This document shows, in pieces, positions 28,401 through 52,841 of a stretch of 54,673 nt of DNA. The notes beneath the pieces were generated by a model. It saw only the letters and a program-made list of their open reading frames with translations, was not told the origin of the DNA and made no database searches. A program made the translations under genes and the position numbers. The first letter of the stretch is position 1. The number at the start of each line of letters is the position of its first letter. Source of the stretch: Cystobasidiomycetes sp. EMM_F5 (lineage: Eukaryota); assembly GCA_051047955.1 (NCBI GenBank), contig JBPGPT010000041.1, positions 62,001-116,673 on the forward strand. Reading direction: 5' to 3'.

Positions 28401-30915
28401 GTACGCTCAGCCGCAACTAGCCCGTTCTTCAATGGGGATGTTCTATATGCACTTAGCAAGAATAGCTCCACATTTGAACAGATTGATATCGAGAAAGAAG
28501 CTGCTAATCCGATGGACTATCTACCTCGTGCAGCTACGGCTTGGTCTGCTGAAGGGACTCTTGCCGCAACGGTCGGAAGCCTCGCATACGATGCAGACAC
28601 CCAACTTCTCGCAAGGTTTGATCAATTTTCCCGATTTCTGCGAGTTGCAGGCTGACTGCTTGACCAGTGCTTCACCGAAGATTGACGTAGACGAGCAAGT
28701 GACAATAAGAGGGCAATCGACAGCAATCATTGAGGGTGCAGAAGTAGACTTCGATCCTGAAGTCTTTCGCTACCTCTCAGAGCAGTATCATTTCCGATCG
28801 CGGCCTGACCAAGCCCTGTCTGTTTCGTGCCAACTCAACGCACAAGCTGCTGCTTCAGCCAAAAAGTACGATGCTTCCAAGATGTGGCTACTCATTTCAG
28901 AATGGCTAGTCAGTGAAGAGAAGGAAGCGGTTGCTAAGAAAGCTAGCGAGAATTTAGAAGCCAGCAAATTGCGCAAGGAAAGACCTCCCTCACCTCCCAA
29001 GCTGACAGGCAAGCAGCAATTTCGTTCATCCTCTGGCACTGTCGCGCATCACCATTTGCAACGCGACTTGCATTCCTCACGCCATAGTTCGCCCCTGGTC
29101 ACCAGTCAAGTACTTTCCGAAGCCGATATATCTCCCGGACCATTCGCTGCTATGGATTTGCCCGCAGCAGAGAATTTGCAGCCGCCTCCGATAAAGGCCA
29201 GCAATCTCTTTTCGGCAGTCGAGTATGTCGCAGACGACACCAGCGATACCTCGACAGATCCAGAGACCGAGACCGGCGCTCCTGAGACAGACAGGCCATT
29301 GCCAACGGGAAGCAAAGAAGATGACACGCGTGCTGATACTGCAATCTCTGCAATGTCCCGTTCCGCTGCATCGTTGCTGACTAAAGTACGACCTGCTCTG
29401 CCAGCCATAAGTCGTCAGACATCGCCAGATCACTCAGCCGCAGGCCGCAGTCATGGCCGGTCCGCCCTGACCAGTCCTGCCCATGCCGTGCCGAATGCCT
29501 TCTCGCAGCGATCTGATCTGGACTTTCCTTCGCCATCAACCGCCAGTAAAATAGCTGCGTCCGGTACTGCCGTACATAAGCCTTCGGCTCTTGCTGCACA
29601 AGTCAATGCGGTCGACATGAGCCGCGGATCTTCTGGCACTGTGCGCGGTGGCGCCGGGGATGCTGCGAGCGACTCTGAGCCAGACGTTACGATCAGCCGA
29701 CAAGATCCAGCGTCCTTAGAAGAGCCTGAAGGAAACGACGATGATGAAGATCACGAAAACACAGCAGATGCTCTAAGACAGCGTGCTCAGCGCAGACACG
29801 CTGCAATCTTGAACAGGAGGGATCATCAAATACCGCGGTATGCGGGCGATAGACGTGGACGAGCCAACTCGAGCGGGCTAGAGCAAATTCGGAGCCGGTC
29901 GACCAGCGCACAACGAAAGACATTTGCTACATCGGCAAGTCGTAACAGCAGCCGCTCTGCATCCTCACGAGGGCGTCGCAGTCGCAAAGTGTCGCAATCG
30001 CGACATGATAATCGCATGGCTGATCAGGCAGATGCTCAAAATCGAGCTGCCAAAGACTTGATGACCCAACGAATGGAAGAACATCTGACACGTATGGTGC
30101 AGGACCTTGCCGATGAAGGGGATATTCAGACCAGTACAGTATTGGCGCTGCTGCTGAGAGAGCGTCTCGGCCTACCAGGCTACCAGGTAGCTCGTTTGTC
30201 GACGGCGTATCTCGGTGAGTCGGCATTGCAGCAGGTCATGGCTTGGAAGCTGAAAAGCGTGCGTTCTAGGCTTGTTGCGCTTGCTGGACTGCCATGCAAA
30301 CGCTGCAGGCATATCGAAAGCTTCGACTGTAGATAGCATTCGAAAGACTACGCTCGACCATACCACGCTACATACAGCCTGTGGCAGATGCGAAAAAGCA
30401 ATAGTTTCGCCACCCTTCAATAAATGCCTAAGGTGCACCGCCGTGACAACCGTTTGCAATTTATGGCAAGTCTGTCGGTTACCGTGGACTAGCTTATTAC
30501 TTATCTGCCTCTTTTCAGTCACAAGGTTGAATTGCACGCACTCATATTCTGCGCGACGTGCGGGCATGGTGCACACGAAAAGTGTCTGTACGAGTACGCC
30601 TCGGAATTATCATCGTCACCCTTTGATGACGTTGTTCACGAGGACGAGTGCGTTCCGTGGAAACCTTCTCGCATCATCACCACACCCTCAACTGTCCCAT
30701 CATCACCCCTGGTGCCGTCAGGATCATCTACTGTACACTGGCTGTTCCCTCACGAGCATGCCCTCTTCTCCTCGGCCGGACCTTCAAGAATAGGTTCACG
30801 AGCTGCTTCTCCAGACCCTCACGACGAAAAGAGCCGGCAGATCCTTCTCAGCCAGTGCCCTGCCGGCTGCGGACACCAATGTCTGCTAGATTTACCGTTT
30901 GCAGAAACGGCTTGA
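25458..30915 (+). CDS. RTC1: GATOR2/SEACAT subunit Sea2/Rtc1 (WDR24 ortholog), multi-exon
   Basis: WD40 blades (SGCQDGDVK, WDLRQPK...AHQGG..LDW, TAGMDGTAK, IWDARREYVPK), CQLNAQAA...ASKMW, GDIQT, C-terminal zinc module CGRC...CLRC...CNLC..CATCGHGAHEKC...CPAGCGHQC, which matches the WDR24-type terminus. Confidence 0.88.
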
Positions 30916-32480: not shown

Positions 32481-33805
32481 ATGGCTTCACCAGCGACCAG
32501 CACCAGCACCCTGAGCGATGCAGACCCCGAGCATGACCATCATGACTCTGCGACGTACAATCCAGTGGTCCGCATCAATGCCCTGTACAGGTCGTTTCTG
32601 CTGTCAAACTCGCAGCGCATCCACCAGGTCGAGAGCAGCGTCCGCAATCTGACTTGGTTTCTGCCGTCCCAAGGGCTCAGCGTCGAGTCGGTCTACACAT
32701 TCTTAAACCTCCTCTCCCTCTACCACGACTCGCTGCTGGCGAGCTCGCCCGAAATGATTGCGGTAAATGCCTCGAGCTCTGCGACTTCAACGCTCGCACT
32801 GCCGACATCGCCGCATACTCGTTATACAAAGTTCTGGTTAAAGCAGAGTCGCTTGTACAAGGGCGTTGCGCGGGCACTGTCAGTCATTGCGTACGCTCAG
32901 CTCCTCCTCGAAATGGCCGGCAAGAAGTACAAAGGGGAACGAGGGCGATGGAGGGTCGTCATAGGCTTAGAGACTGTAAAGTCAGCTTTTATGCCTTGCG
33001 CTAAATCACCGATGTGCTGATTGCCGTCGATCTTGGTTGTTATCAGAGCGTTATTGCGGCTGGTACTGCTGCGACTGACAGCGCAACGGACAGTCTTGCA
33101 GCCAAGCATACCGGAGAGAGAGGTTGATCCTTCTACTCTAGCCCAAGCTGAAGCTAGAGCCAAGTCACCCGCTGCTGCAGTCCCCGAGACATGGAAGGCA
33201 GCCCGGAGCGGCTTCGAATTGCCAACAATCGCTTCCTTACGGTCACAAGCTGGTGGTGGTGCACTCCGAGTGGAGAATGAAATTACCGCATTCTTGCAGA
33301 AGAAGGTCTTGACTATCGATGGAGTCTGCAAGCCGTACGATCTGGTTCGCAAACGCCACGGACTGGGCGTGATTGCCGAGATTGTGTGGATCTTGAGGCC
33401 TTTGATATACGGTGAGCCGCATCAGCATACTCAGTATGTATGATAGATTCTGATGGCTTGCTGCACAATCTAGTCTTGGCTCTCAAGCGCTACGGCAAGA
33501 AGCATCTGTATCCATTCCTACTGTCGCTCGCACTAGAATATTTCGCATATCAGAACATGGCAGACACGTTGAGAGCGAGTTCAACACGTGGCGGTACAGA
33601 AGTTGAGAAGCAAGAGCTAGCAAAGAGGCGGAAAGCCTTCTGGGCGTACTGTTTCCGCGGTCCACTCTGGTATGGCTGGACTCGCGAAAGGGTCGAAGGC
33701 TTCACGGCAAAGTTCCAGGGCGTTTTTGGCATTGGTCTCATTGCCAATATCGTCGACGAGTACAAGCACCTCATCGATGACTACCACTACTATTCGTCAT
33801 CGTGA
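32481..33805 (+). CDS. PEX16: Peroxisomal membrane biogenesis protein Pex16, multi-exon
   Basis: YRSFLLSN...VESSVRNLTWFLP, LSLYHD, SPHTRYTKFW, QLLLEM, RWRVVIGLETVKALLRL, PEREVDP, AEIVWILRPLIY, ELAKR...YCFRGP.W..WTR, DYHYYS. Confidence 0.93.
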
Positions 33806-34305
33806 CCGACACACGCCGGGCTGAGTCTCAAGCGGTGCCCCAGCGGCCCCGACCACGCTGTGTTGATCTCGAAGTCCATAATGCTCGGCAACCTATTTTC
33901 GCTCAAGCTATCCGAAGCAATCTTTGTCGTTGTGCCTCTAATGCCAATCCAGTCGCGTCTGTTTCAGCACTGTCGCTCACGTGCATCCTTCGCTAGCGGC
34001 GGCTGCAATTGCTGGAGAAATGCCGCTGACCTTTGACGTCTCCGAGCTAGCGTATGCTGTGCCGCTTTCAAGCCGACTGATCAGCTGGACCCGGTAGCTG
34101 GACGGCAGGCACAGCAAGCGGAGCAGTAGCGGGATTGCCTTTATATGAGGTCTTGAGGCTTGCACTGCACTACAGCGCATGTTGATAGCCAAAGCTGAGC
34201 CCTAGCTGATGTTTGTGGCTTACGGGCTTGACCTACAGTTCTTCTATACTCAGCATTCCCGCATCCCATTTTCCGCAACCACAGCAGTTCAACTCAACCA
34301 TCGAT

Positions 34306-35124
34306 ATGGCCCGCTCTGCAATCACAGCCAAGACGACGCTGAAGAGCAGCCCGCCAAAAACCAGGCATGTCTCCAAGGTCGCCGGCAGGCGGACAAGGGT
34401 GCCTTATCCTATCAATCATCCGCTACCACAACTTTCGTCATACGCGAAGTGTAGAACGGCTCAAATAGCTGATAGTACACCCGTTGACTGCGAAAGACTG
34501 CTCATTCGCAAGCGGAATGTAGCTAAAAGCCTCAGCCAAAGCCTGCTCGCCATGGCAGTGCTTACCGAGATTGAGCTTGTCAACACAATTCATCGAGAGA
34601 CTCTCTCTGTACGCAAAGACCTCATCCGGAACGCTTTCTATCTCCCGGCTGTGCGCCTCTGCGCCACGAACGACCTGCCCACTTCAGGCGTACGTAGCTT
34701 ACAACGCCGGACGAGATATCTGCACAACATCTTGTGCGAAAAGTACCTTGCTTTACATGCGCAGCCTGTACCGACAGCCTTGTCTGCACCTGGCTATACC
34801 AACTTATATCAACCCTACGCCACCCCTATCGTGATCGGGCGGATACAGACATGGTGGACAGAGATGGTCCTTCCTCCTCGTCAAGCTGTATGTCAGCTGG
34901 CTGTAGACATCGAAAAAGTAGTCGATTCCAAGCCCGGACTCTCACTGTTGTCAAGAAAGCAGCAAAATGCTTTGTTCAGAGAGCGAGCGGGAGCACAACT
35001 GCTACGGCTGGATTCAGAGCTTCTTCTGGCAACGCCTGCATGCGTGGGCTTCTCGTATCTCATTGAAGATCTCGATGGGCACTTGGAGCAAAAATACGAA
35101 TTAGCAGATACTTACAGCATGTAA
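34306..35124 (+). CDS. Hypothetical protein (about 270 aa) with a basic N-terminus, no recognised family
   Basis: Long open frame 34213..35124, first ATG at 34306, TATA-like TTTATAT near 34140. A possible in-frame short intron near 34449-34496 cannot be excluded. Confidence 0.5.
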   Translation: MARSAITAKTTLKSSPPKTRHVSKVAGRRTRVPYPINHPLPQLSSYAKCRTAQIADSTPVDCERLLIRKRNVAKSLSQSLLAMAVLTEIELVNTIHRETLSVRKDLIRNAFYLPAVRLCATNDLPTSGVRSLQRRTRYLHNILCEKYLALHAQPVPTALSAPGYTNLYQPYATPIVIGRIQTWWTEMVLPPRQAVCQLAVDIEKVVDSKPGLSLLSRKQQNALFRERAGAQLLRLDSELLLATPACVGFSYLIEDLDGHLEQKYELADTYSM

Positions 35125-35410
35125 AGTAGGATATATTGCTGCACACATCAATCAATGGGCAAACGGGTCAAATGGAAGTGCGCTATCTTCTCTGTCGCGT
35201 TGAGTGAAGGATGCCAGCAGATTGTTGATAAGCAGCTGGGTTGGGAAGACAGGGCAATGTTCACTTAAAGGGGTAAGGGATTCATCGAATAACGCCGTAC
35301 AACCGCGACGAGAAGGGTGCTACAGATGACGTGACAAATCTTTCAGCCACAGTGGAAGTTGCAGAGTTTTGCCCTGTGCTCAGGTTTTGGAAACAAGCTG
35401 TCCGTCGTAA

Positions 35411-35704
35411 TCACGATCCAGCAATTTGTGCCTGTTGCGGAGATGGTCCGCGGGATCTTGGAGGTGAGTGTGGACCGTCCTGTGGTGCATCTGCTGTAGG
35501 TTGCGTCTGCCGCGAGTTGTGTCTAGATGGACCATTTTTCTTGCTGTGACGACCTCCAGACGGTGGCACTTGAGTATTTCTAGTCTTTCTTGCGTTTCTC
35601 ACGGCGTGAACGGCCGGCCATACACAACAGGTTGCCATAGCCAAACATACGATTCCTGAACTGAGCCCAACACGATCTGCCGTCCTATGCCTGTTGTGGG
35701 CCAT
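35411..35704 (-). CDS. Microprotein A (97 aa) with a Cys-containing hydrophobic segment and a basic/Pro-rich tail
   Basis: SSGIVCLAMATCCVWPAV and DGPHSPPRSRGPSP align with microprotein B; ATG start, no intron needed. Confidence 0.65.
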   Translation of the reverse strand: MAHNRHRTADRVGLSSGIVCLAMATCCVWPAVHAVRNARKTRNTQVPPSGGRHSKKNGPSRHNSRQTQPTADAPQDGPHSPPRSRGPSPQQAQIAGS

Positions 35705-35818
35705 CTGAGGAGTTGTTGAGCAGTGCGAGAGGTGTTTAAAGCGGAGCTATCGGCACGGAGGTCGTTATGCAAAGCAGAGGATGAAATTGCAAAGTGTCAG
35801 TTGCACGTCCCGACTCCG

Positions 35819-35832
35819 GGGACAGCCTTTAC
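35819..35832 (-). promoter_or_regulatory. Conserved upstream element GTAAAGGCTGTCCC of microprotein A
   Basis: 13/14 identical to 36699-36712 and at a near-identical distance from the ATG. Confidence 0.45.
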
Positions 35833-36297
35833 GAGTGGAGTTTCATCAGCGTGTATAGCTGTATGTGAAACCGCTGAGTAAGCGGGTGGACTCCGGTCAA
35901 CATCACAATGACTGATGTGGAAGACACGTGTGAAGCGTTAGCCTCCTTTGCGTGAAAGTTAATGTTTTCTGTATTGGGATGTGAGGGATGTCGGATCAGC
36001 GATTTCCATTTCAAGCGAGATTCGGGAGAAGGAATGCATTGGATAGACCACTCTATCTCAGTCAATGCTGCGTGAGAAGGGGTATAAACCTGGCAATCTG
36101 ATCGATATCTGTTAGACATTTGTCAACGCGCCTGATGAATGTTTTCCGCGGTCTGGGTATAATCCGCTCGATTAATTCCTTGTCAAACAGAACCGTGTCC
36201 TGCAGCAAATGGAGTACAACAGATGCACGGAGGACACGCAACCTCAGCTAGGGGTAGCAGTCAGCACGGATAGGCTGGCTGCGCATGTCGAGTACCA

Positions 36298-36576
36298 TTA
36301 AAGCGCAGCATATGGAGCCGGCGGGGTTCGGGGTCTTGGAGGCCGTCCACGTGAGATAACAGGAGGCGGATGCGGACCATTGTGCGATGAATCTCCGACG
36401 CTTGATCCTTGCCGCTGCCGATGTTTGGAGCCTTTCTTGCGGGGCCGTGTCGACCCTTGACTTTGCGCACGTAAGTTGATTCCGTCCCTAATGCACTGCC
36501 ATACACCGCAGGTAATCATACAGCAAAATACTTCCCCTGTATTGTAACTCATGCTTGTTCCCGTCCTCGGCGCCAT
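36298..36576 (-). CDS. Microprotein B (92 aa), paralog of A
   Basis: MAPRTGTSMSYNTGEVFCCMITCGVWQCI...NGPHPPPVISRGRPP; shares G.V...M.TC.VW and GPH.PP..SRG with A. Confidence 0.65.
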   Translation of the reverse strand: MAPRTGTSMSYNTGEVFCCMITCGVWQCIRDGINLRAQSQGSTRPRKKGSKHRQRQGSSVGDSSHNGPHPPPVISRGRPPRPRTPPAPYAAL

Positions 36577-36698
36577 CTCTGCTATCGACGAGCAATGCAG
36601 TGGAAATTTGCAGGGGAAGCTGTCGCTGAAGGAAGGGCTTGATGTGAGCAAGAAGAAGAGATGGAATGGCAAATTTATATCTGACCACCTGATAACGC

Positions 36699-36712
36699 GG
36701 TACAGCCTTTAC
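36699..36712 (-). promoter_or_regulatory. Conserved upstream element GTAAAGGCTGTACC of microprotein B
   Basis: Matches 35819-35832; followed on the sense strand by TATA-like ATATAAAT (about 36673-36680). Confidence 0.45.
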
Positions 36713-37753
36713 CTGTAGATTCACATGAAATTGTTTAGTTGTGTGGGATTGCACTGCATAAGCGAGTAGATACCGCTCGACAGCATTTCAGCTCTGTGAG
36801 GCACGTATGTGAGGGTTGCATATCTTTCAGTTGATGTCGTCTGAGGATTCACGCACAAGGAGAGTGGAAGGAATAAGCGTAAGGCATCTCTTGTAGATGT
36901 TCGTTCCCAGACCGCTTAGCAGCGTGAAGAGATCTTTGCTTGACAGACCATTGTCGTTTAAAGCAGTCGCTTAGAGCAAAGCCGGGAGTCAAGTGAGGAC
37001 TACGGTATCTCCTGAATTAACGTTAGTGCTTTCATACTGTACAAGTCGATTTATTTCACCATGAGCGGCATTGTCACCATTACAGCTATGCTGCATCATT
37101 CTAAGGTGAAACAGAAGATGCAAGAGCATAAACCTGTGCTTGGCTCGTTTCGCTCCTCAAAGTTAGCATCGCTCAAGCTAGATAAACCACGCCAACATTG
37201 TTCTTGCAAGACAGCGACGGACGTAGTCGCCGTCATTGACTGCCGGTACTGGGTGATGATGTTCGACGAACATTCCTACGGTGTGGGTCGCTTGGGCTGG
37301 CTACAGCTGTTCCAAACCGGAGGGCTCGCTTCTGACTTGTGGACATCAATTCTTCGGGCGCAGAAACCCTGTTGGAACGTCGTGCAACGGGCATGACTCC
37401 GCTCGTGTTCCTGCCAGAAGCAGATCGCCTGGGAATAGGCAGGCCACAGCCTCCTCCAATGAGTCTGTTGATGAGCGAAGGATGGACGCATGCAGCCGTA
37501 TTTGAATTGTGTGGCATTTTCTTGTGCTGGGACGTGATTTTGTGCTGGCGATTGTGAGTGTGAAGCAGAGAGAGAATTGGGCCGTAGAATCATCTTAAAA
37601 GCGACCAGCGGTGTAAGTGAACAGCCACTACGCAGCTGCACCGCAGCCATTCGGATGATCGGCAGAGTACCGCTTGCGACGACTGTGCGAATGCTGAACT
37701 CAGCTTCAGTCCATTTCCGGGCATCGTGTTGCATCTACTGTGCGTCGACCGAC

Positions 37754-38268
37754 TCATCCGATGAACAATCGTCTCAAATGCAATATGCGGCAAAAATGCT
37801 TTGCAAATAAAAGTGGATCGAGGCGGTCGTCTGTGAGACTTGTAAGAGAGTTCTAATGGACCTATTCTTGTACCGCGACGTTTCCATACGAGCGTGTGTT
37901 CATCGTAATTGTGGAAATACTCTCTGTACGTTTATACGCACGAGTCGTCTCTTGAAGTAAAGGGAAAGGGGCCAAGCGATAGTACCGTAGGGCTGTATGT
38001 GGATTATTCTGCAGGATAGCAGCTGTCGTGTTCGGTCCGAACGGCGAAACACCGTTACCTAGTAGATCTGAACAAAGCTGTTGGTATCGCCAAATTAGAT
38101 ATTGAGCCTGTCCCGTAACTCTGCAGATACACTCGGGGATACTTTCGCGCGCGAGTATTGGGTACAGTGCCACATGAGATTCTTGAAAGCTCGGGGCTGG
38201 CGTTTCGGTGTGCAGACAAGCAGCGTCATGGGGAAGGACTGCTTCGCGGAAAGCGTTCTGGCTGTTAT
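37754..38268 (-). pseudogene. Degenerate fungal HNH-endonuclease (HNH_2-like) gene relic
   Basis: Extending the frame of ORF 37862..38173 gives NSQNAFREAVLPHDAACLHTETPAPSFQESHV...TAAILQNNPHTALRYY...E*VH*...DDRLDPLLFAKHFCRIL. This follows the order FR..V..RD..C..T...AHI, NG.LLR.DLH..FD, P.LL..HF seen in fungal HNH proteins. Two in-frame TAGs (37862-64, 37853-55) and degenerate catalytic motifs. Confidence 0.5.
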
Positions 38269-38788
38269 CTGTATCGTTGGATTACTGGATATATAGTAAG
38301 AATGAGTGCTCCCACGAGCTTAAGTCCAGTATGAGCCAGGTGAGGCATGACGCATCGTCACTCTCGCGTCCATAGACCGGTAAGCCCGCCATGAGCCCTC
38401 AGGACCACATTTCCACAAAAAGTGTCACTTATCTCGCAGAATCGCCAATCCATCACATTGCACTTGGCTGTATCCAGACCAACTGGGTGCGGCTGACTTG
38501 TCGATTTAAGATTGTATTCGCCAGCTGTCGCTCCTGGCGCGAGTGTAAGGCGCCGCTCTGGCTCATGGACATGGTGGGGGGAATCGAGCCTTCAAGTTGC
38601 TCGTTGACGAGATTGTGCAGAATAAGACTGACTACAGACATCGTCCCCGCTTTGCATATGAAAGGCGATGGTAATTATGACTGGGAAACCAGAGAGCGCA
38701 ACACTAGTCGGACCTCTTCGAAAGACAGGCACCACCACAAATTGACATCCACGATATACTCTGATACAAGTCAAACGCCTACAAACTA

Positions 38789-39163
38789 TCACGCATCTAC
38801 ATCTCCTGAACGTGAACCGCTGGGCGTACGCATGCGCCGTGCTGGCGAAGCTTGTCGACTGCTAACTGTACCTGGAGCCGGAGCATGTTGACGGTCGTCT
38901 GAACTTCCCGCTGAGCCATTCCTATCCTTGCGTTCGGAGCGTCGATGACGAATGAGAGATTGTGAGGTTTGAGCTGCCGACCCACTGTTTCCTCCATTTC
39001 CGCTCTTTGTTTTATTGACGCCCCGCTTTGTAAAGCTTTTTGGCAGGCAGAAGAGGGCGAGACCGCAAGTACCTGCTATTGCCAGATTTAAACAGAAATT
39101 ATTCGCAGTATTCGCTCCTCGTCGGTACTCCCGGGGAGATGATGCAGGACTCTGGCGCGACAT
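38789..39163 (-). CDS. Microprotein C (124 aa), same architecture as A/B but more diverged
   Basis: Short basic N-terminus, FCLNLAIAGTCGLALFCLP (TCG core), then a Lys/Arg/Ser/Gly-rich disordered tail. Confidence 0.55.
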   Translation of the reverse strand: MSRQSPASSPREYRRGANTANNFCLNLAIAGTCGLALFCLPKSFTKRGVNKTKSGNGGNSGSAAQTSQSLIRHRRSERKDRNGSAGSSDDRQHAPAPGTVSSRQASPARRMRTPSGSRSGDVDA

Positions 39164-40344
39164 GCTCGGCTAGTCGCAGGAGGTGTGAGTCGAGTCGCAG
39201 AGCTCTCACAACATCTGAAATAGGCGGTACGCTAGCGTGCGGAGTGTTGGACGTTGGGATACAGCCTCGGCATTGCCGCCTTTTGGCAAGCACGCTCCGA
39301 GTCCCCTTGACACGTCTGGGTGTTTAAGATCCGGATCATGCGCAGAGTCCTGCTGGGTTCCATCAATCTGCACGAGTTGCTACTCTGTGCGAGGGACAGC
39401 TGTAGAGTGCTCCGTGACCGTCTCGGACAGTCGTAGGGGCTTTGCAGAGTAGCCGCGTATCATCGACCAAGTTGAGAGGGTCAGTCTCGGCGGTTAGTCA
39501 GTGTTAGAATCCAACTGTCAGTGGATGATTAGAATGCTCGTTTCTGTCAAATGAAATAGTCAGCTTTCATCAAACAAGATGCAATGCATAAAAGTTGCCT
39601 GAATGCGTCTGCGTCACTCATAAGCAGGCCAACCCTGCCAACCTGCCAACCACCTCTGAGCACTGCACGATCTCGAGTCGACCAAGCTGCCCGATGCCAT
39701 CCTGAAGTCTGCCATCCGTCCTGCCAGTCACGGCAATACACTGCATATTGGAGTAATTGCAAGCCCAGAGTTGGACAGTCGCACAGTCAGAAGAGGCGAC
39801 GTCCAGGCGCGAGTCCAAGGACGGCGAGCTGTGGAGGGTAAAGTTCTGGACAACATATGCCTACCGTCCTCGTATCCAATATCCAGCCAGAGCTTCACCC
39901 GGAGCCCGAGCTTTTAAACGCCGGACTGTCAATTTGAATCTCCAATTGAACAAGCAGGTAGATACTAATCACCACCAGCCCACACTACAAGCTGAGCATC
40001 CATCCCATCCTCACATCCACAGCGCTCCTCCTTTGGCATTACTCACAGCCACGCCACCCAGGTCTGAAGAACATTCAAAGGGTGGGTTGAACCGCCGCAT
40101 AACACGCAGAGCCCATCCATTGCTGTCAAAGCGTCAAAGACTGGCTGCAAGGACGCTTACAACTGCTACGATACCTCGTTGTATACTGCTGATCGAGATC
40201 TGACCGGGTTGCAAAGTGACGGCGCGAAAGCAGGTGCTGCAAGAGTAGTATTCGTACTCTAGTCTCAATACTCATTACTCAGCTCCCGACTTTTAATCTC
40301 CCACCCTCGACCAGGAGTGGCCTCCCTCTTTCGGACTCGCTGCC

Positions 40345-42119
40345 ATGCAGCAGGGTCACATGTACGGCCAGCCGGGTGGCCCCAACAACGGGCAACCTCT
40401 GCCATTCCAGCAGATCCCCATGCAGGGTATGAACAATGCTGGAGGCGTCGGTCCGATGCAGATGCCGTTTGGCCAGCAGTTTCATCAATTAAATCAACCT
40501 CCGCAAATCCAACAGCAGCACATGTGGACGTCTCCCGTCAAGCCTCAAGCTGGACTCGGTATTCCAAACGCCGGGCAACATGGGCAGAGAAATCTCTATT
40601 CCCCTCATCCGCCGCAACAGCCAGTCATGCCGGGCAATCCTTTTGCAGCGGGCGCTCAACAACAGCAAAATGGTACTAACCCGTCAGGACAAGTTCCACC
40701 TCAGCTTACACAAGCAGAGATACAAGCCATGTTTGCATCGTTGGGAGCGCCAGGTCCCGCCTCCAATTCTCCAGCTCTGATTCCGTTGCACAATAATGCA
40801 ACTCAGCAACCCCTGCCACAGACGTTTAATCTCAATCCTGCGTTTCCAGGAGGTCCGACGCCAGGGATGACGCAGCAGTCGATGCAGAATGCCGCTTCGA
40901 TGCAATTTGCCCCACAGCAACCGCCCGGATCGGGCAACATGCCATACAATCCGCAACTGCAAGCTGCACTACAGCAGATGCAGAACGCTCTGGCAGCGCA
41001 GCAGCAACATATAAACAACGGGCAAGGTGGTCAGTTCAACAGTATTCCAGCCCATCTGCTCTCGCAGCAGCCCGCTGTTGCAGCGGCCATGAAGAATATG
41101 CAGGTGCAGAACATGACACCAAATATGAATATGTCGATGCAAGGTTTTTCGCAACAACAGCAGCAGCAGCAGCAACAACAACAACAAGCTGCTCAAATTC
41201 CCAATGCCAATGCCAAAGCCGGCGGACAAAATAGCACAAGTAACAATGCCGCTCTGTCCAACGCTAATTTCATGACCCTGCTAAACAACAATCTGCTAAA
41301 TAATGGTAACAATGGCAATCCGCAGCATGATCTCAATTTCCTTACGAAGCTTCAGCAATCTGGCATACAGCTCTCGCCCGAGCAGCAGGTGCTCCTTTCT
41401 CGGGCTATGCCGAGAAGGGGCGGTATCATCAATCAGGATCCTAGGACTGCGTTGAACGCAGGGCAGGCCCCAAATAGAACGCCCCAGCAGCAACCGATGC
41501 AATTGCAGCAGCCTCAACAGCAGCAGGGAAACCAGGTACGGATACCACCCCAGCAACCGCAATCACAACAGAATCAGCTTCCTCTGGGACTGCAAGGTAT
41601 ACCAATGCAGCAATTTCAGCAAGGCCCAAACATGCAACAGCAGCCTTTTACTGCCAGTGCCAATCTTCCGCCACACATGCAGCAATTACAACCTTCACAA
41701 AAGGAACAAACCCAACAACAGCCGTTCCAACCTCCTGCTCCACAACAAACACAGCAGCCGCAGCCGCAGCCGCAGCCGTCGCAGCAGAATAATACTACAG
41801 TTCCACCCAATGTCGTTGGAGAGTACGCCCATTATGTAGATCATTTGCGACTCTTGGCAGCACAGGAGCAGCGCATTGAACACTCCCTCAATACAAATAC
41901 ACTGATATCTGTAAAGCAGAGTGGACAGCAACAGGTGCCACCGCGAGCCATGGATGCGACGACGCGGGGCCAGATGGAGAAGCAATTGGACAATATACGA
42001 AAAGCGTTGGTCAAGTACAAGGAGAATGCTGCAAAGCTGGAAGAGCAATGGGGTGGCAGAGATCAGCTTTTATCGATCCTGAAGAATCAGCAACAACAGC
42101 GAGCGTGGGCATCGCAGGC

Positions 42120-42155
<36 letters not shown>

Positions 42156-45137
42156 GGCAGCTGGACCAGGATCGAATGCTGGTGCGAATGCATCGCAAAC
42201 GCTCGACAGACAGCAGATGCGCACGCCTGTCAATGGTGTGCAAGCAGCCGCGCAGCTCCAACAGCAGTCGCAAATCACTCCTGGCAACATACTCGGCCTG
42301 CAGAATCAGACGCAAACGACGCCTCAGCAAGCGCAGGCACAAGCTGCCGCACAAGCTCAGTATCAGCGATTTGCTGCCTTTCAGCAACAGCAGGCGGGAA
42401 CAGCCAGTCCGGGTGGACGCCAGGCGTCTCTCCAGGGCGCAGCGCAACCTCACATGCAGATACCGCAGCAGCCAGATATAACGGCCTCTCCGGCGAACAC
42501 TGCTCAGAGTCTCGCCGTGCCCGCTGCGCAACAGCCACCATCCCAATCTAGCGCGTCTCCATACAGGATCGTCCAGCATATTATGTACAACCCGGCTTTC
42601 AATGCTCTCCCGGTTGGTCAGCAGCAGCTGGTACGGCAGCAGTATACGGCAATCAACGAAGAAGTGCAAAGAGCGTTGCAAAACGCTTCACCGAAAAATT
42701 TCGTAGCAGCTTTGTTCGAAATGATGGCCAAGAATGGTACTGACATTACCACCACTCCTCGCGTGGAGATGCGTGAGATCGATCTTTTCACGCTGTACAA
42801 AGTTGTCCAGAAGCTCGGTGGCTGTACAGCGGTCCGACGGGGCAATGGCTGGCTGGCCGTGGCAATGGAGACTGGAGTTGTACATCAGGATCTACAGCAG
42901 AGTCGGCCACAGGAGGCTGCCCGCCTGGCTGACATATTATCTGGGGTCTATGCTAAATTTTTGGAGCCGTTTGAAGACGTTCAGCGAAGGGCAGCTTTCA
43001 ATGCGGTTATGAAAGCGCAGCCGCACCTCGCTCTGCCCCTTCAAGCTGTCTTATCTGCCTTGCCCCCAATGCCAGCATCGAATCCACAAATGCAAGCAGC
43101 TCATGAGCAGGCGAAGGCAAGTTTCATGCAGAATATGCAGCAACTTCAACAGCAAGCTCAAGTCCAACATCAATCGCTTCAGCAGCAATTTCAGCAAGAG
43201 CAACAGCCACGACCGCAGTCAAGAGCGAGCGCTTCGAAGGCTGTCGGACAAGCCGAGACAGCAGGACAGAACGCAGTGCCGAGCCCCGCTCAAGGTCAAT
43301 CTGAGGGGTCTCTGCCTACGCGGATTCCTTCGATGGGCCAACTGTCGAATCCTAGCGGATCGCCGACCACCCGGCCGCTCAATTTGCCGCCCCCAGAGGA
43401 AATTAACAAAGCTCGAGCTGAGGTCGAGGCTATGAAAGCAATCATACTAAAAGGCAATAGACGTAAGCTGGCAGTGCTGGCTTTCGTCTCATTACATCAG
43501 CGGTGGCTGATTTCTTTTCCCTCACTGTATAGAATATCGTACGCTCGACAATATCGATGCTGCTGAGCAGGAGAAATTCATCGCGACCGCGCGACCGATG
43601 GCTGGAATGGTTGACAAAATAATCGATCTTCTGCCAGTCTACCTCGCTATCAGCCAAGAAAGAGAAGGGTCGCGACGCTTGTTGGTGATGGTATGTCGAT
43701 TGCTCTATCGTGTCATCGATACCCTGACTGATATGTTATCCTCAGCTTTACATGTTCAAAGAGCAATTAACGATGCTAGATAGGAGGGAGTTTGTTCTCC
43801 GTCTCAGCGACATAGACAAGCTCAGGCTACAAATACAGCGCTGCTGGTCCTACGTTCAGAGTCACGCAGGCCCAACACCACCACCACTCAGCTCTCCGCT
43901 GCCGAACGTGGTGAACGGTCCCAGCGCCAGCTCTGCGCCTGGAAGAGACAATCCTGCCTCACGCCCGACCGAGTCCAAACAGTCAAACATGACATCTGCC
44001 CTGGACAACATCGCAGGGCATGACTCTGCCAATGTCGAATCTGGAAATGGCAGCGGCTTTATGCTCAAGGCCGGCTTACGTCGCGAAGATCTTAAGCCTC
44101 CGCCAACCAAGCATCGTCGAATTGCATCCTCCGCAAATTCTGATACGCACTCAGCAGGTCGTTCTCCCGCAGCAGTATACATCAATGGCACGTACGGGCA
44201 AGCGCAGGGCACAGGGCAATCGTACGCCTCCCCGATCGCTATCGATTCCCCTTCTCCGCGCAGCAAGAATGCGGCTACACAATCGCAACCAACAGGTAGT
44301 CTACCTGTCCGCTCAAGCTCTCAGCAGGCCCGAAATGCACCATCTCCTAAATATACAACGCTAGACAGCGCGAACCCGCAGAGCAAAGCACTCAAGTCAC
44401 AAAGTAAGGCGCCCGTGGCAAAGGCCTCCCCTGCAAAGAATGAAGCTACCGATGCAGACGTGCATGTACCTCCGCTACCACAGCCGAATCCGGCAGAGTT
44501 GTTGGAAATACAGCGAGCGATGCAGGAGAGACAGAATGTCTCCCTGAAGCGTAAGCGCGAAGAGGAAGAGGCAAAAGCGGATCCTGCTGCTTTCACCGAG
44601 CGTATACTGTCATCCATGTGGTGCGCTTCATCTGCGCCGACACAACCTTCACTTGACAAGAACATGGTGGCAGCCCGAGTATCCACCACTGGCTTTGAAG
44701 AGTTCTTGAGTGCTGAACTTTTAGATCTCATGGGCGACGATCCTGCACAACCGAATCTCACTCCCGTCCCCGGAGTGATAAAAAATGGCAGTGATGGATT
44801 AGCCGCGAGTGCACTTCCCGATTGTGCATTGGATATTTTCGTGGATTTCGACGTGGACTCCACACACAATGTGTGGTTCAACGACCCAAGCAATGCGTTG
44901 ACACCAGATCTTACTATCGGCGACGATCCCACGAAGACAAGTCCTCCAGACAATGATCTGGTAGCGACACCTCTCGACCCATTGCAAAACAGCAAGCCTG
45001 CCCTGCTCGCTAATAATAGTATACCAATCTATGATCAAGAGTATGCGACGTATTTCGGACCGTCTGCAACTCTGGCCCCAGCTCCCGACAACGCCTTCTC
45101 GACGTGGAACTGGTCGTCTGGCTTAGTTTCCTCGTAA
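40345..45137 (+). CDS. Large Q/N-rich transcriptional coactivator with an ARID domain and a Med15/Gal11-like C-terminal helical region
   Basis: About 780 aa Q/N/P-rich N-terminus; ARID FVAALFEMMAKNG...REIDLFTLYKVVQKLGG...W..VA...YAKFLEPFE (about 42700-42975). Introns 43463-43532 and 43691-43745 join ORFs 40345, 43598 and 43752. In-frame TAA at 40294 upstream of the ATG. Confidence 0.8.
41152..41187 (+). repeat. CAA/CAG polyglutamine tract
   Basis: Mixed CAA/CAG run encoding 12 Gln. Confidence 0.9.
42121..42156 (+). repeat. CAG/CAA polyglutamine tract
   Basis: Mixed CAG/CAA run (cagcaa units) encoding 12 Gln. Confidence 0.9.
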
Positions 45138-51587: not shown

Positions 51588-52841
51588 ATGCCCAAGGAAT
51601 CATTCGGCGGCACGACTGAGCGACATGAGCAACCACTCGAAGTGCCGCCGTCGTATGGCGAGAGCGTGCGGACAACGGGCAGTACTCGATCCAACAATCA
51701 GCAGCCAGCTCGGCCGCAGTCAATCAGCGGCCCAGTCATGGTAAACCAGCAATGGCAGCATCCGCAGGCTTCGTCGTCGTCGTCTAGCGCACAAGCGAGT
51801 CCTGTGATGCTGTCCTCGCCGTATGCTTCTGGCCTCAGTCCTGACTTGCTGCAGTTTGGCAACGACGACAAGGCTGGCTATTCAGCAGCAGCGACTGATG
51901 GACCCACTGCATCCTCATCGCGGACTTCCATGTCGTCCTTTGCTCGCCGTTCCAGCATGTCAAAAAAGGAAAAGAAGCCGTCGAAACAGGAGCAACAGAA
52001 TGACCGCGAAAGCAGTCATTTGCGACAATGGACGCCCTGTATCCCTCCGGAAGCACAGAAGGCACTAGCACCACTCACCCTGACTGCGGACGTCAAGCCC
52101 ATCACTGGCGTCTATTCGATAGAACTGTCCAACGCAGTCGCAACAAGCGATAACGGCAACGGAGTGTTGACGACAGTCTCGCCGACTGCCAGCTTCACCG
52201 CGACTCTTCGACACGATATAGACGTCACTCTCTTCTTTCGACCGAATCCATCGTCTCCTTCGCCTTTATCACCACAGAGCAAAGCACAGCCTCCTCCGCT
52301 TCCTGCTCGACGAGGTGGTGCAAGCAACGCTGCCCCGTCGCCAGCTGCGGATAGACCACCTGAAGATATTCCACTCCAAGTGCTCGTCAAATGCAATAAG
52401 GGCAAGCTCAAGCTATCCGTCCCGGATCGAATACCGTCTCGGCCACTACGTATCATATGCGTTCTTGAGAGTGAGATCTATACTTCATCTCGTAGGTGAA
52501 TGCCAGGTGACTGAAGCCAGCACCTTCAAACAGACAATGCTCAGATCTCACTTCCCCTCGGATTCGATGGCAAGCTGGCCATCTGGGCACCAGCGGGGAG
52601 CATCGAGTTATCAGAGCCTTTGCGATTAAACAGCACCATCATTCCATCAACACAGAACAATTCATACATTACCGTATACCGCATCACGCCATCTGTGACG
52701 GCCAGCGCGCCGAGCGCAGACAAGCAAGCAACCACTGTCGATTTGTGTCAGGTCAATACGAGTAAAGGCAAAGTCAGGGTCGATTATGCGAAACCGCCCA
52801 GAAGACCGGCAAATTCAGATGGGAATTGTACTGTAATGTGA
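51588..52841 (+). CDS. Uncharacterised protein with an N-terminal PPSY motif, a beta-rich (DUF7330-like) C-terminal domain and CaaX (CTVM)
   Basis: ORF 51588..52499 spliced (intron about 52471-52533) to NAQISLPLGFDGKLAI...VDLCQVNTSKGKVRVDY...NCTVM*. The domain name is tentative. Confidence 0.7.

Follow-up and report, generated by a model that had tools for sequence, protein, structure and literature searches.

A probable orphan family of two diverged small genes in tandem in Cystobasidiomycetes sp. EMM_F5

Do three short open reading frames (ORFs) on one strand of a fungal contig encode proteins, and are those proteins kin? The question arises in a stretch of 54,673 nt from Cystobasidiomycetes sp. 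EMM_F5 (contig JBPGPT010000041.1, positions 62,001 to 116,673), which we call the window and from whose first letter all coordinates are counted. A preliminary description of this DNA had proposed that ORFs A, B and C form an undescribed tandem family of small, cysteine-bearing, single-pass and probably palmitoylated proteins. All three co-oriented ATG ORFs, of 97, 92 and 124 amino acids (aa), are indeed present on the minus strand with the peptides quoted there. Our reexamination points to a family of two rather than three, and we lean, if not strongly, towards reading A and B as two small protein-coding genes that are paralogues in tandem, restricted to their lineage and missing from the annotation. 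The features of this pair are as follows.

35411..35704, minus strand: ORF A, 97 aa, with a basic N-terminus, a Cys-bearing hydrophobic stretch at residues ~12-35, a polybasic stretch and a tail
Within ORF A: the tail, Pro/Ser/Gly-rich and carrying GPHSPP
36298..36576, minus strand: ORF B, 92 aa, a paralogue of A with a hydrophobic core of ~14 residues (VFCCMITCGVWQCI) followed by a polybasic stretch
Within ORF B: the tail, carrying GPHPPP and RPPRPRTPP

Judged by their sequences, A and B are true homologues, diverged duplicates of one another. BLASTP aligns them at 37 bits, with an expectation value (E) of 2e-9 and 24/76 identical residues. Local alignment of the two under BLOSUM62 scores 110, against 33.3 ± 6.5 in plain shuffles, where that value is reached by 0/2000, and against 44.5 ± 9.0 when the N-terminal flank, the hydrophobic segment and the tail are shuffled separately, where it is reached by 0/3000. 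The similarity noted in the preliminary description is thus significant against shuffles of both kinds, and the two peptide elements named there, G.V...M.TC.VW and a second block with GPH.PP, reappear among the 32 invariant columns of the alignment. Conservation is concentrated in two blocks, the core G.V...M.TC.VW near the N-terminus and GPH.PP...R.R.P.P towards the C-terminus. When each protein was searched against all six frames of the window by tblastn, A and B matched only each other (E ~1.5e-6), the next best hits having E values of 0.22 and 1.0.

Further degenerate copies at the ~875-bp period were found nowhere in the window by tblastn, hmmsearch or nhmmer. A 94-aa ORF at 37233-37517, which seemed to have an MxHN start in common with the pair, was recovered by no search. 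Separately, the tail of A carries two related short motifs, KNGPSRH (residues 56-62) and QDGPHSP (residues 76-82), at ~35459-35539 on the minus strand; the first of these and the single NGPH motif of B have an exact 8-nt word in common, at an in-frame offset. The A tail therefore hints at an internal duplication.

The comparison of A with B shows conservation specific to the frame of each ORF. Similarity scores 110 in the ORF frame, against 38, 42, 41, 76 and 27 in the other five. In a fixed alignment of 261 nt (49.4% identical), the ORF frame contains 32 identical residues out of 87 (37%) and gives a BLOSUM sum of 160. Shuffling the aligned nucleotide columns yields 19.1 ± 3.0 identical residues, with 32 reached by 0/5000 shuffles, and shuffling within 9-nt blocks yields 20.8 ± 2.7, with 32 reached by 1/5000. 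Just one other frame attains 32 identities; it is antisense, has its wobble position in common with the ORF frame, and is interrupted by two stops in each copy. Nucleotide differences rise towards the third codon position (38, 42 and 52 of 87 at positions 1, 2 and 3), different codons are used at 18 of the 32 identical residues, and the proportion of nonsynonymous differences (pN, 0.46) compares with a synonymous proportion (pS) of 0.64.

This signal is present at both ends of the proteins. The N-terminal block is significant alone (3/3000) and scores 46 in the ORF frame versus 17 and 17 in the alternatives, and the C-terminal block behaves likewise (16/3000; 50 versus 17 and 19), with a weak block between them (109/3000; 34 versus 31 and 14). 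Because the two outer blocks each score best in the ORF frame, the frame has been kept across the insertions and deletions (indels) that separate them. All three indels within the ORFs are multiples of three, compared with one of ten in the non-coding DNA upstream (Fisher p 0.014). The start codons, within a common AGATGGC, and the stop codons align. In neutral simulations at 50.6% divergence, a copy stays stop-free in 2.3% of cases and stop-free with its ATG kept in 0.29%; at 32% divergence, these fractions are 6.9% and 2.2%. By Markov coding score, the A and C frames are each the best of three, and no peak between 33.4 and 40.3 kb is higher than that of A. Conservation that is frame-specific and wobble-biased, and a frame maintained across indels, are the signature of coding sequence, and we consider A and B probably to be real coding genes.

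The duplicated unit extends beyond the ORFs, into non-coding DNA on their 5′ side.

35717..35932, minus strand: upstream non-coding block of A, a putative promoter and 5′ untranslated region (UTR), homologous to the block of B
36589..36809, minus strand: upstream non-coding block of B, homologous to the block of A
35819..35832, minus strand: shared 14-mer GTAAAGGCTGTNCC, copy A, 115-128 nt 5′ of the ATG of A
36699..36712, minus strand: shared 14-mer GTAAAGGCTGTNCC, copy B, 123-136 nt 5′ of the ATG of B

Between these ~220-nt blocks, 143 of 209 ungapped columns are identical (68%), and their local DNA score of 40 stands far above that of shuffles (10.8 ± 1.4; z score 21, 0/500). The DNA of the ORFs themselves scores 15 versus 10.0 ± 1.3, a value reached by 4/500 shuffles. 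The 14-mer GTAAAGGCTGTNCC occurs without mismatch only at the A and B loci, and at one more site, 1110-1123, with one mismatch. Over the 400 nt downstream of A and B, similarity is at chance level (393/500 shuffles). The preliminary description had seen little obvious DNA identity outside the shared peptide blocks and had argued from this for selection at the protein level. With ~220 nt upstream aligning at 68%, above the 49% of the ORFs, the observation does not stand, and the argument built on it loses its premise.

We read the upstream block as a promoter and leader that was duplicated together with the ORF and has been kept by constraint or by conversion. Under the reading that we favor, an ancestral unit of at least ~520 bp, comprising ~220 nt of promoter and 5′ UTR plus the ORF, would have been duplicated head-to-tail, placing the two ATGs 872 bp apart. 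The leader would then have stayed 68% identical while the ORFs fell to 49% nucleotide and 37% amino-acid identity, and the ORFs would nonetheless have kept their start codon, stop position, two peptide blocks and a common frame across several indels.

Several observations weigh against A and B being genes. The upstream block is better conserved than the ORFs (68% versus 49%, the latter from a protein-guided alignment), which raises the possibility that selection acts mainly on something other than the ORFs. A high score (76) is also reached by the antisense frame with the same wobble position. Codon log-odds are 0.022 for A and -0.042 for B, against 0.12 ± 0.084 for genes and -0.026 ± 0.071 for small ORFs, and Markov scores are 0.047 and -0.014, against 0.090 ± 0.071 for genes and -0.054 ± 0.091 for chance ORFs, though both measures separate genes from chance ORFs poorly in this genome (GC content at third codon positions 0.52). 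By these scores A lies between genes and chance ORFs and B inside the chance distribution, and the B frame does no better than its own +1 frame by Markov score. Chance readily yields ORFs of 80-140 aa here, and the 54.7 kb of the window hold 80 of them. The comparison has biases of its own: the fixed alignment is protein-guided and so tilts the tests towards the ORF frame, the loci were picked because they were ORFs, and in this comparison of paralogues, which gives no clean dN/dS, synonymous sites are saturated (dS, the synonymous divergence, ~1.4). Finally, a look-up for 34000-40300 listed no RNA run, and the announcement of the EMM_F5 genome describes DNA reads only (PMC12697161).

The alternative that survives these data best is a decaying tandem duplication of non-coding DNA, in which A and B would be fortuitous open frames that make no protein. 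It is in keeping with the abundance of chance ORFs, with coding scores for A and especially B that lie between or inside the null distributions, with low coding potential throughout the 33.4-40.3 kb stretch, and with a non-coding flank better conserved than the ORFs. It also fits the fact that A and B were called neither by the public annotation nor by the ORF caller behind the Logan entries considered below, and that database searches return no homologues of either. Such decay, however, would leave a copy stop-free with its ATG in only 0.3-2.2% of neutral cases. Nor does it account for an ORF frame kept across indels, when 9 of 10 upstream indels are not multiples of three, or for conservation that is frame-specific and wobble-biased (0/5000 and 1/5000) with start and stop codons in register. 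We regard non-coding decay as a serious minority explanation.

Whether the family extends to a third member turns on the remaining ORF.

38789..39163, minus strand: ORF C, 124 aa, with a layout similar to that of A and B and membership unproven

The layout of C is close to that of the pair: a maximal 19-residue Kyte-Doolittle mean of 1.86, three Cys within the hydrophobic segment, and a tail that is basic and rich in Ser/Gly. Of the 80 small ORFs in the window, three pair an N-terminal hydrophobic window with at least three Cys. B and C also align by BLASTP at E 0.007, a similarity matched in 2/2000 plain shuffles, and C is the best of 78 other small ORFs when compared with B (score 54; next 41). 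Once composition is preserved segment by segment, however, the B-C score of 54 compares with 37.2 ± 7.0 and is reached by 85/3000 shuffles. The A-C comparison is at chance under both schemes (477/2000 plain shuffles; score 38 versus 38.4 ± 7.5, 1469/3000 segment-preserving shuffles). A profile of A and B scores C at E 0.39 among 167 ORF pieces, and tblastn of B finds the C tail at E 1.3. Searches by nhmmer with profiles built from the duplicated unit and from the upstream block give no match near C, the best other hits lying at E of at least 2.1. C has no homologue among proteins of near length, no Pfam family and no usable Atlas hit. Its inclusion, which the preliminary description had already thought less certain, is not borne out: C appears to share only a layout with A and B, without detectable relationship, and is best treated as an unrelated ORF whose coding status is unproven. 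That all three ORFs form one family of single-pass palmitoylated microproteins is unlikely.

A different possibility is that selection acts on the upstream ~220-nt block itself, in the role of a regulatory module, a non-coding RNA or a leader RNA, with the ORFs translated incidentally or serving as spacer. The contrast in identity (68% versus 49%, z 21), the exact shared 14-mer and the absence of a conserved open frame in the block all speak for it. A structured RNA was considered and rejected: folding z scores of the two blocks are -0.41 and -0.26, their consensus is weak (-9.6 kcal/mol over 244 columns), and Rfam gives no match at E<=1 in 33000-40500. Selection on the block would leave the frame-specific, indel-tolerant conservation of the ORFs unexplained, and we think it improbable that the block is the sole element under selection.

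Other interpretations of the upstream DNA were set aside as well. It cannot be read as an exon, since every frame has stops in at least one copy. An intron within the 5′ UTR, running from GTAAAG to a CAG before the ATG, is unsupported: it would span ~125-133 nt, versus 40-86 nt for 15 introns mapped in the window, and GTAAAG is not among the donors of those introns. A 96-aa ORF at 35829-36119 on the minus strand overlaps the leader of A and terminates at the TAA of the GTAAAGG motif common to both leaders. With no matching ORF upstream of B and a coding score as low as -0.067, this is probably a chance frame. At the 5′ end of the leader, copy A contains a CACGTG palindrome (35925-35930, minus strand), which we take to be an E-box-type site, aligned with TACGTG in copy B. 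These hexamers are a candidate regulatory site shared by the two leaders.

We return to A and B as probable proteins, and to what they might do. In all three ORFs, every Cys sits in the hydrophobic stretch, which spans residues ~12-35 of 97 in A (Cys 20, 26 and 27), 15-29 of 92 in B (Cys 18, 19, 23 and 28) and 23-41 of 124 in C (Cys 24, 33 and 39). A single-pass segment is conventionally called at a 19-residue Kyte-Doolittle mean of at least 1.6. On this scale A, with a maximum of 1.84, and C lie above the threshold, and B lies below it, with a maximum of 1.01 that rises to 1.54 when 15 residues are averaged; the single-pass assignment of the preliminary description is borne out only in part. 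The 14-residue core of B falls short of a membrane-spanning length, and B would more likely attach through an in-plane patch. With A and B as a two-sequence alignment, AlphaFold2 predicts a single helix in A at residues 5-43, followed by coil. A hydrophobic helix is thus plausible for A and weakly indicated for B. None of the ORFs ends in a CaaX box, as had been stated before, the C-termini being IAGS, YAAL and DVDA.

More basic flanks of membrane segments tend to face the cytosol, following the positive-inside rule. Net charge in A is +2 over residues 1-11 and +4 over residues 36-45, and in B it is ~0 to +1 over residues 1-15 and +2, rising steeply, over residues 30-48. The C-terminal flank is therefore the more basic in both proteins, and the rule would put both the polybasic region and the tail on the cytosolic side. 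Within the tails are PxxPxR (A) and RxxPxxP (B) patterns, which we take to be of the PxxP-type docking motif classes. In the corresponding model, the hydrophobic Cys helix of A would act as a membrane anchor with a short N-terminus outside and the C-terminus inside, B would bind through an in-plane hydrophobic patch stabilized by S-acylation, and in both the basic flank and disordered Pro-rich tail would face the cytosol, where GPHxPP and PxxP-type motifs could dock partner domains.

Four points count against this model. The hydrophobic stretch of B lies well under the 1.6 threshold, and only one Cys column is positionally conserved (C26 of A with C23 of B). The total of three to four Cys per protein is about that of random sequence, and the AlphaFold2 prediction has poor confidence (predicted local distance difference test, pLDDT, 54.4; predicted template modelling score, pTM, 0.20). 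Membrane association of A and B through the N-terminal segment is accordingly something we hold as tentative, falling short of an even chance, and S-acylation of the two as rather doubtful.

The least likely account is that A and B are secreted, as small extracellular peptides of a leaf-surface yeast with an N-terminal signal peptide, cleaved or not, and possibly dibasic processing. In A, a basic n-region leads into a hydrophobic core of 13 residues, and V-H-A ahead of residue 35, with Pro at -5, fits the -3/-1 rule for signal-peptide cleavage. The 14-residue core of B is of signal-peptide rather than transmembrane length, and the proteins have KK/RKK dibasic sites and a Pro/Arg-rich C-terminus. 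Yet B has no comparable -3/-1 site, the hydrophobic core is the most conserved part of the proteins (M.TC.VW), which is unusual for a signal peptide, and the more basic C-terminal flank in both points to a cytosolic tail, so that we think secretion very improbable.

Database searches place A and B in no known family, as the preliminary description had supposed in calling the family undescribed. Against Pfam-A, hmmscan assigns no family to A, B or C at E<=0.01, and at E<=10 the sole match is Rv2743c for A, at 13.8 bits versus a cutoff of 27.7, which is noise. No homologue of A, B or C was found among proteins of near length. An exhaustive HMMER search, free of any length filter, with the A/B profile among 1.84 billion representatives gave two matches at E<=1e-3, which we rejected as spurious: both are tandem-repeat or low-complexity proteins, and the similarity is confined to the disordered tail or to 33 residues. 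In metagenome contigs, 260 pattern matches yielded 0 confirmed, and a profile search of the PDB has 0 matches at E<=1. The best Atlas score for A, 0.80, is reached by shuffled proteins about one third of the time. A search of a library of open-access papers turned up no described fungal family of this type. A and B thus appear to be a sequence family without known relatives.

The nearest systems are alike in layout. LAT-type adaptors and GAP-43-type anchors combine a short N-terminus, a hydrophobic or acylated Cys segment, a basic cluster and a disordered docking tail, which is the layout we propose for A and B. These proteins are metazoan, have no sequence kinship with the pair, and use Tyr-based or other motifs in their tails.

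A second comparison is with the CYSTM/CYSPD proteins (yeast YBR016W, YDL012C, YDR210W and YDR034W-B, S. pombe Uvi15, and plant PCC1 and CDT1). Like A and B, they are small (60-150 aa), with one Cys-rich hydrophobic segment and a non-globular, Pro-rich remainder. By its definition, the CYSTM module always lies at the extreme C-terminus, contains 5-6 Cys of which 3-4 are consecutive, and is followed directly by a conserved acidic residue (PMC2804304). In A and B the segment is near the N-terminus and matches no Pfam model, and A, B and C have three, four and three Cys, with at most two consecutive. An acidic residue follows two positions past the core in B (D31), whereas A has none until D72 and C none nearby. 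Since all the defining features fail, A and B are not members of CYSTM/CYSPD, and the "CYSTM-like chemistry" of the preliminary description is best kept as an analogy. The analogy may still be of use: the Cys-rich hydrophobic segment of the yeast proteins is reported to hold them on membranes through palmitoylation and not as a true span (PMC10840359), and binding of this kind would be the most plausible way for the short core of B to attach.

A third comparison is with young or taxonomically restricted yeast ORFs encoding a hydrophobic helix plus disorder, a phenomenon that is well described (PMC9544372, PMC10063215). Such taxonomically restricted or de novo small genes resemble A and B in being short, without homologues and sited in gene-poor intergenic DNA, with a helix-plus-disorder product and weak codon adaptation. 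A and B differ in that their unit is already duplicated and both copies carry coding-type constraint, which suggests some age and function. A more ambitious proposal would make A and B the founders of a lineage-restricted family, possibly born de novo in this gene-poor stretch before their tandem duplication. They would be microproteins that are S-acylated and anchored at the N-terminus, mirroring the C-terminal anchorage of CYSTM/CYSPD; the disordered Pro-rich tail in the cytosol would recruit partner domains to a membrane through the conserved GPHxPP/PxxP-type block, and the unusually conserved 220-nt leader would impose shared regulation. We consider it a long shot.

The EMM_F5 genome of 18.6 Mb was annotated with 6,580 genes by funannotate with BUSCO training; coding sequence reportedly makes up ~58% of it, at a density of one gene every 2.8 kb (PMC12697161). 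The same announcement places EMM_F5 without a sister taxon among 27 genomes of its class (PMC12697161), so empty homology searches tell little about the age or conservation of A and B. Four EMM_F5 proteins at NCBI match the window at every residue: KAL7004674.1 (790/790), KAL7004677.1 (418/418), KAL7004684.1 (1663/1663) and KAL7004690.1 (396/396). They define the 15 mapped introns of 40-86 nt, with variable GT donors and acceptors that are CAG in 11 cases and TAG in 4. In a collection of 15 billion proteins, 5 of 10 window ORFs submitted have exact entries, all of them ORF calls on a single Logan contig of 60,971 bases, which cluster at >=90% with the four NCBI proteins; A, B and C have no exact entry there.

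Just five accession numbers separate the gene that ends at 30912 from the one that starts at 51588. These are already taken up by the PQ-loop, Pex16, ARID, Med15-like and WD40 genes and perhaps by a 272-aa ORF, which would leave A, B and C unannotated. By this numbering argument, the three are very probably absent from the public annotation of this genome, which bears out the earlier expectation that gene finders would pass them over. Long ORFs in the neighborhood have Pfam domains of the Pex16, PQ-loop, ARID, Med15_fungi, WD40 and RCC1/BTB types, which mark the DNA as fungal. An ARID-domain ORF at 40345-43566 on the plus strand is followed after 186 nt by a 461-aa plus-strand ORF (43752-45137) with a weak Med15_fungi match (E 1.4e-6), and the accession count between the flanking genes fits these two as one fused model or as two.

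In the standard code, 34500-40200 contains 21 ORFs that start at ATG and encode 50 aa or more, among them A, B and C on the minus strand. The surrounding ~7 kb (33400-40300) scores low for coding throughout on both strands, with every 240-nt window at or below 0.046 bits per codon, and apparently holds no annotated gene except possibly the 272-aa ORF; it contains no tRNA and, by blastn, no internal DNA repeat. The 272-aa ATG ORF (34306-35124, plus strand; 304 aa stop-to-stop, 34210-35124) converges on A. It has no Pfam family, PDB relative or exact entry in the protein collection. Its length argues against chance, yet its coding score is only ~0.01; an orphan gene and a gene with a different model are both conceivable here.

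The outcome of this reexamination is chiefly corrective: the family has two members rather than three, and the duplication takes in a non-coding leader whose conservation exceeds that of the ORFs. That A and B are transmembrane or palmitoylated proteins remains an unproven inference from sequence. What we propose is a probable orphan two-gene family of modest interest, and with two copies in one genome its practical weight is modest too. If the genes are real, A and B would be small genes skipped by ab initio annotation in a sparsely sampled fungal lineage. As a duplicated orphan, the pair would let a comparison of paralogues stand in for missing outgroups and so provide a test case for young genes. 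If the proposed architecture is also true, its Cys-bearing N-terminal anchor and conserved Pro-rich tail would offer a new sequence family for studies of S-acylation.

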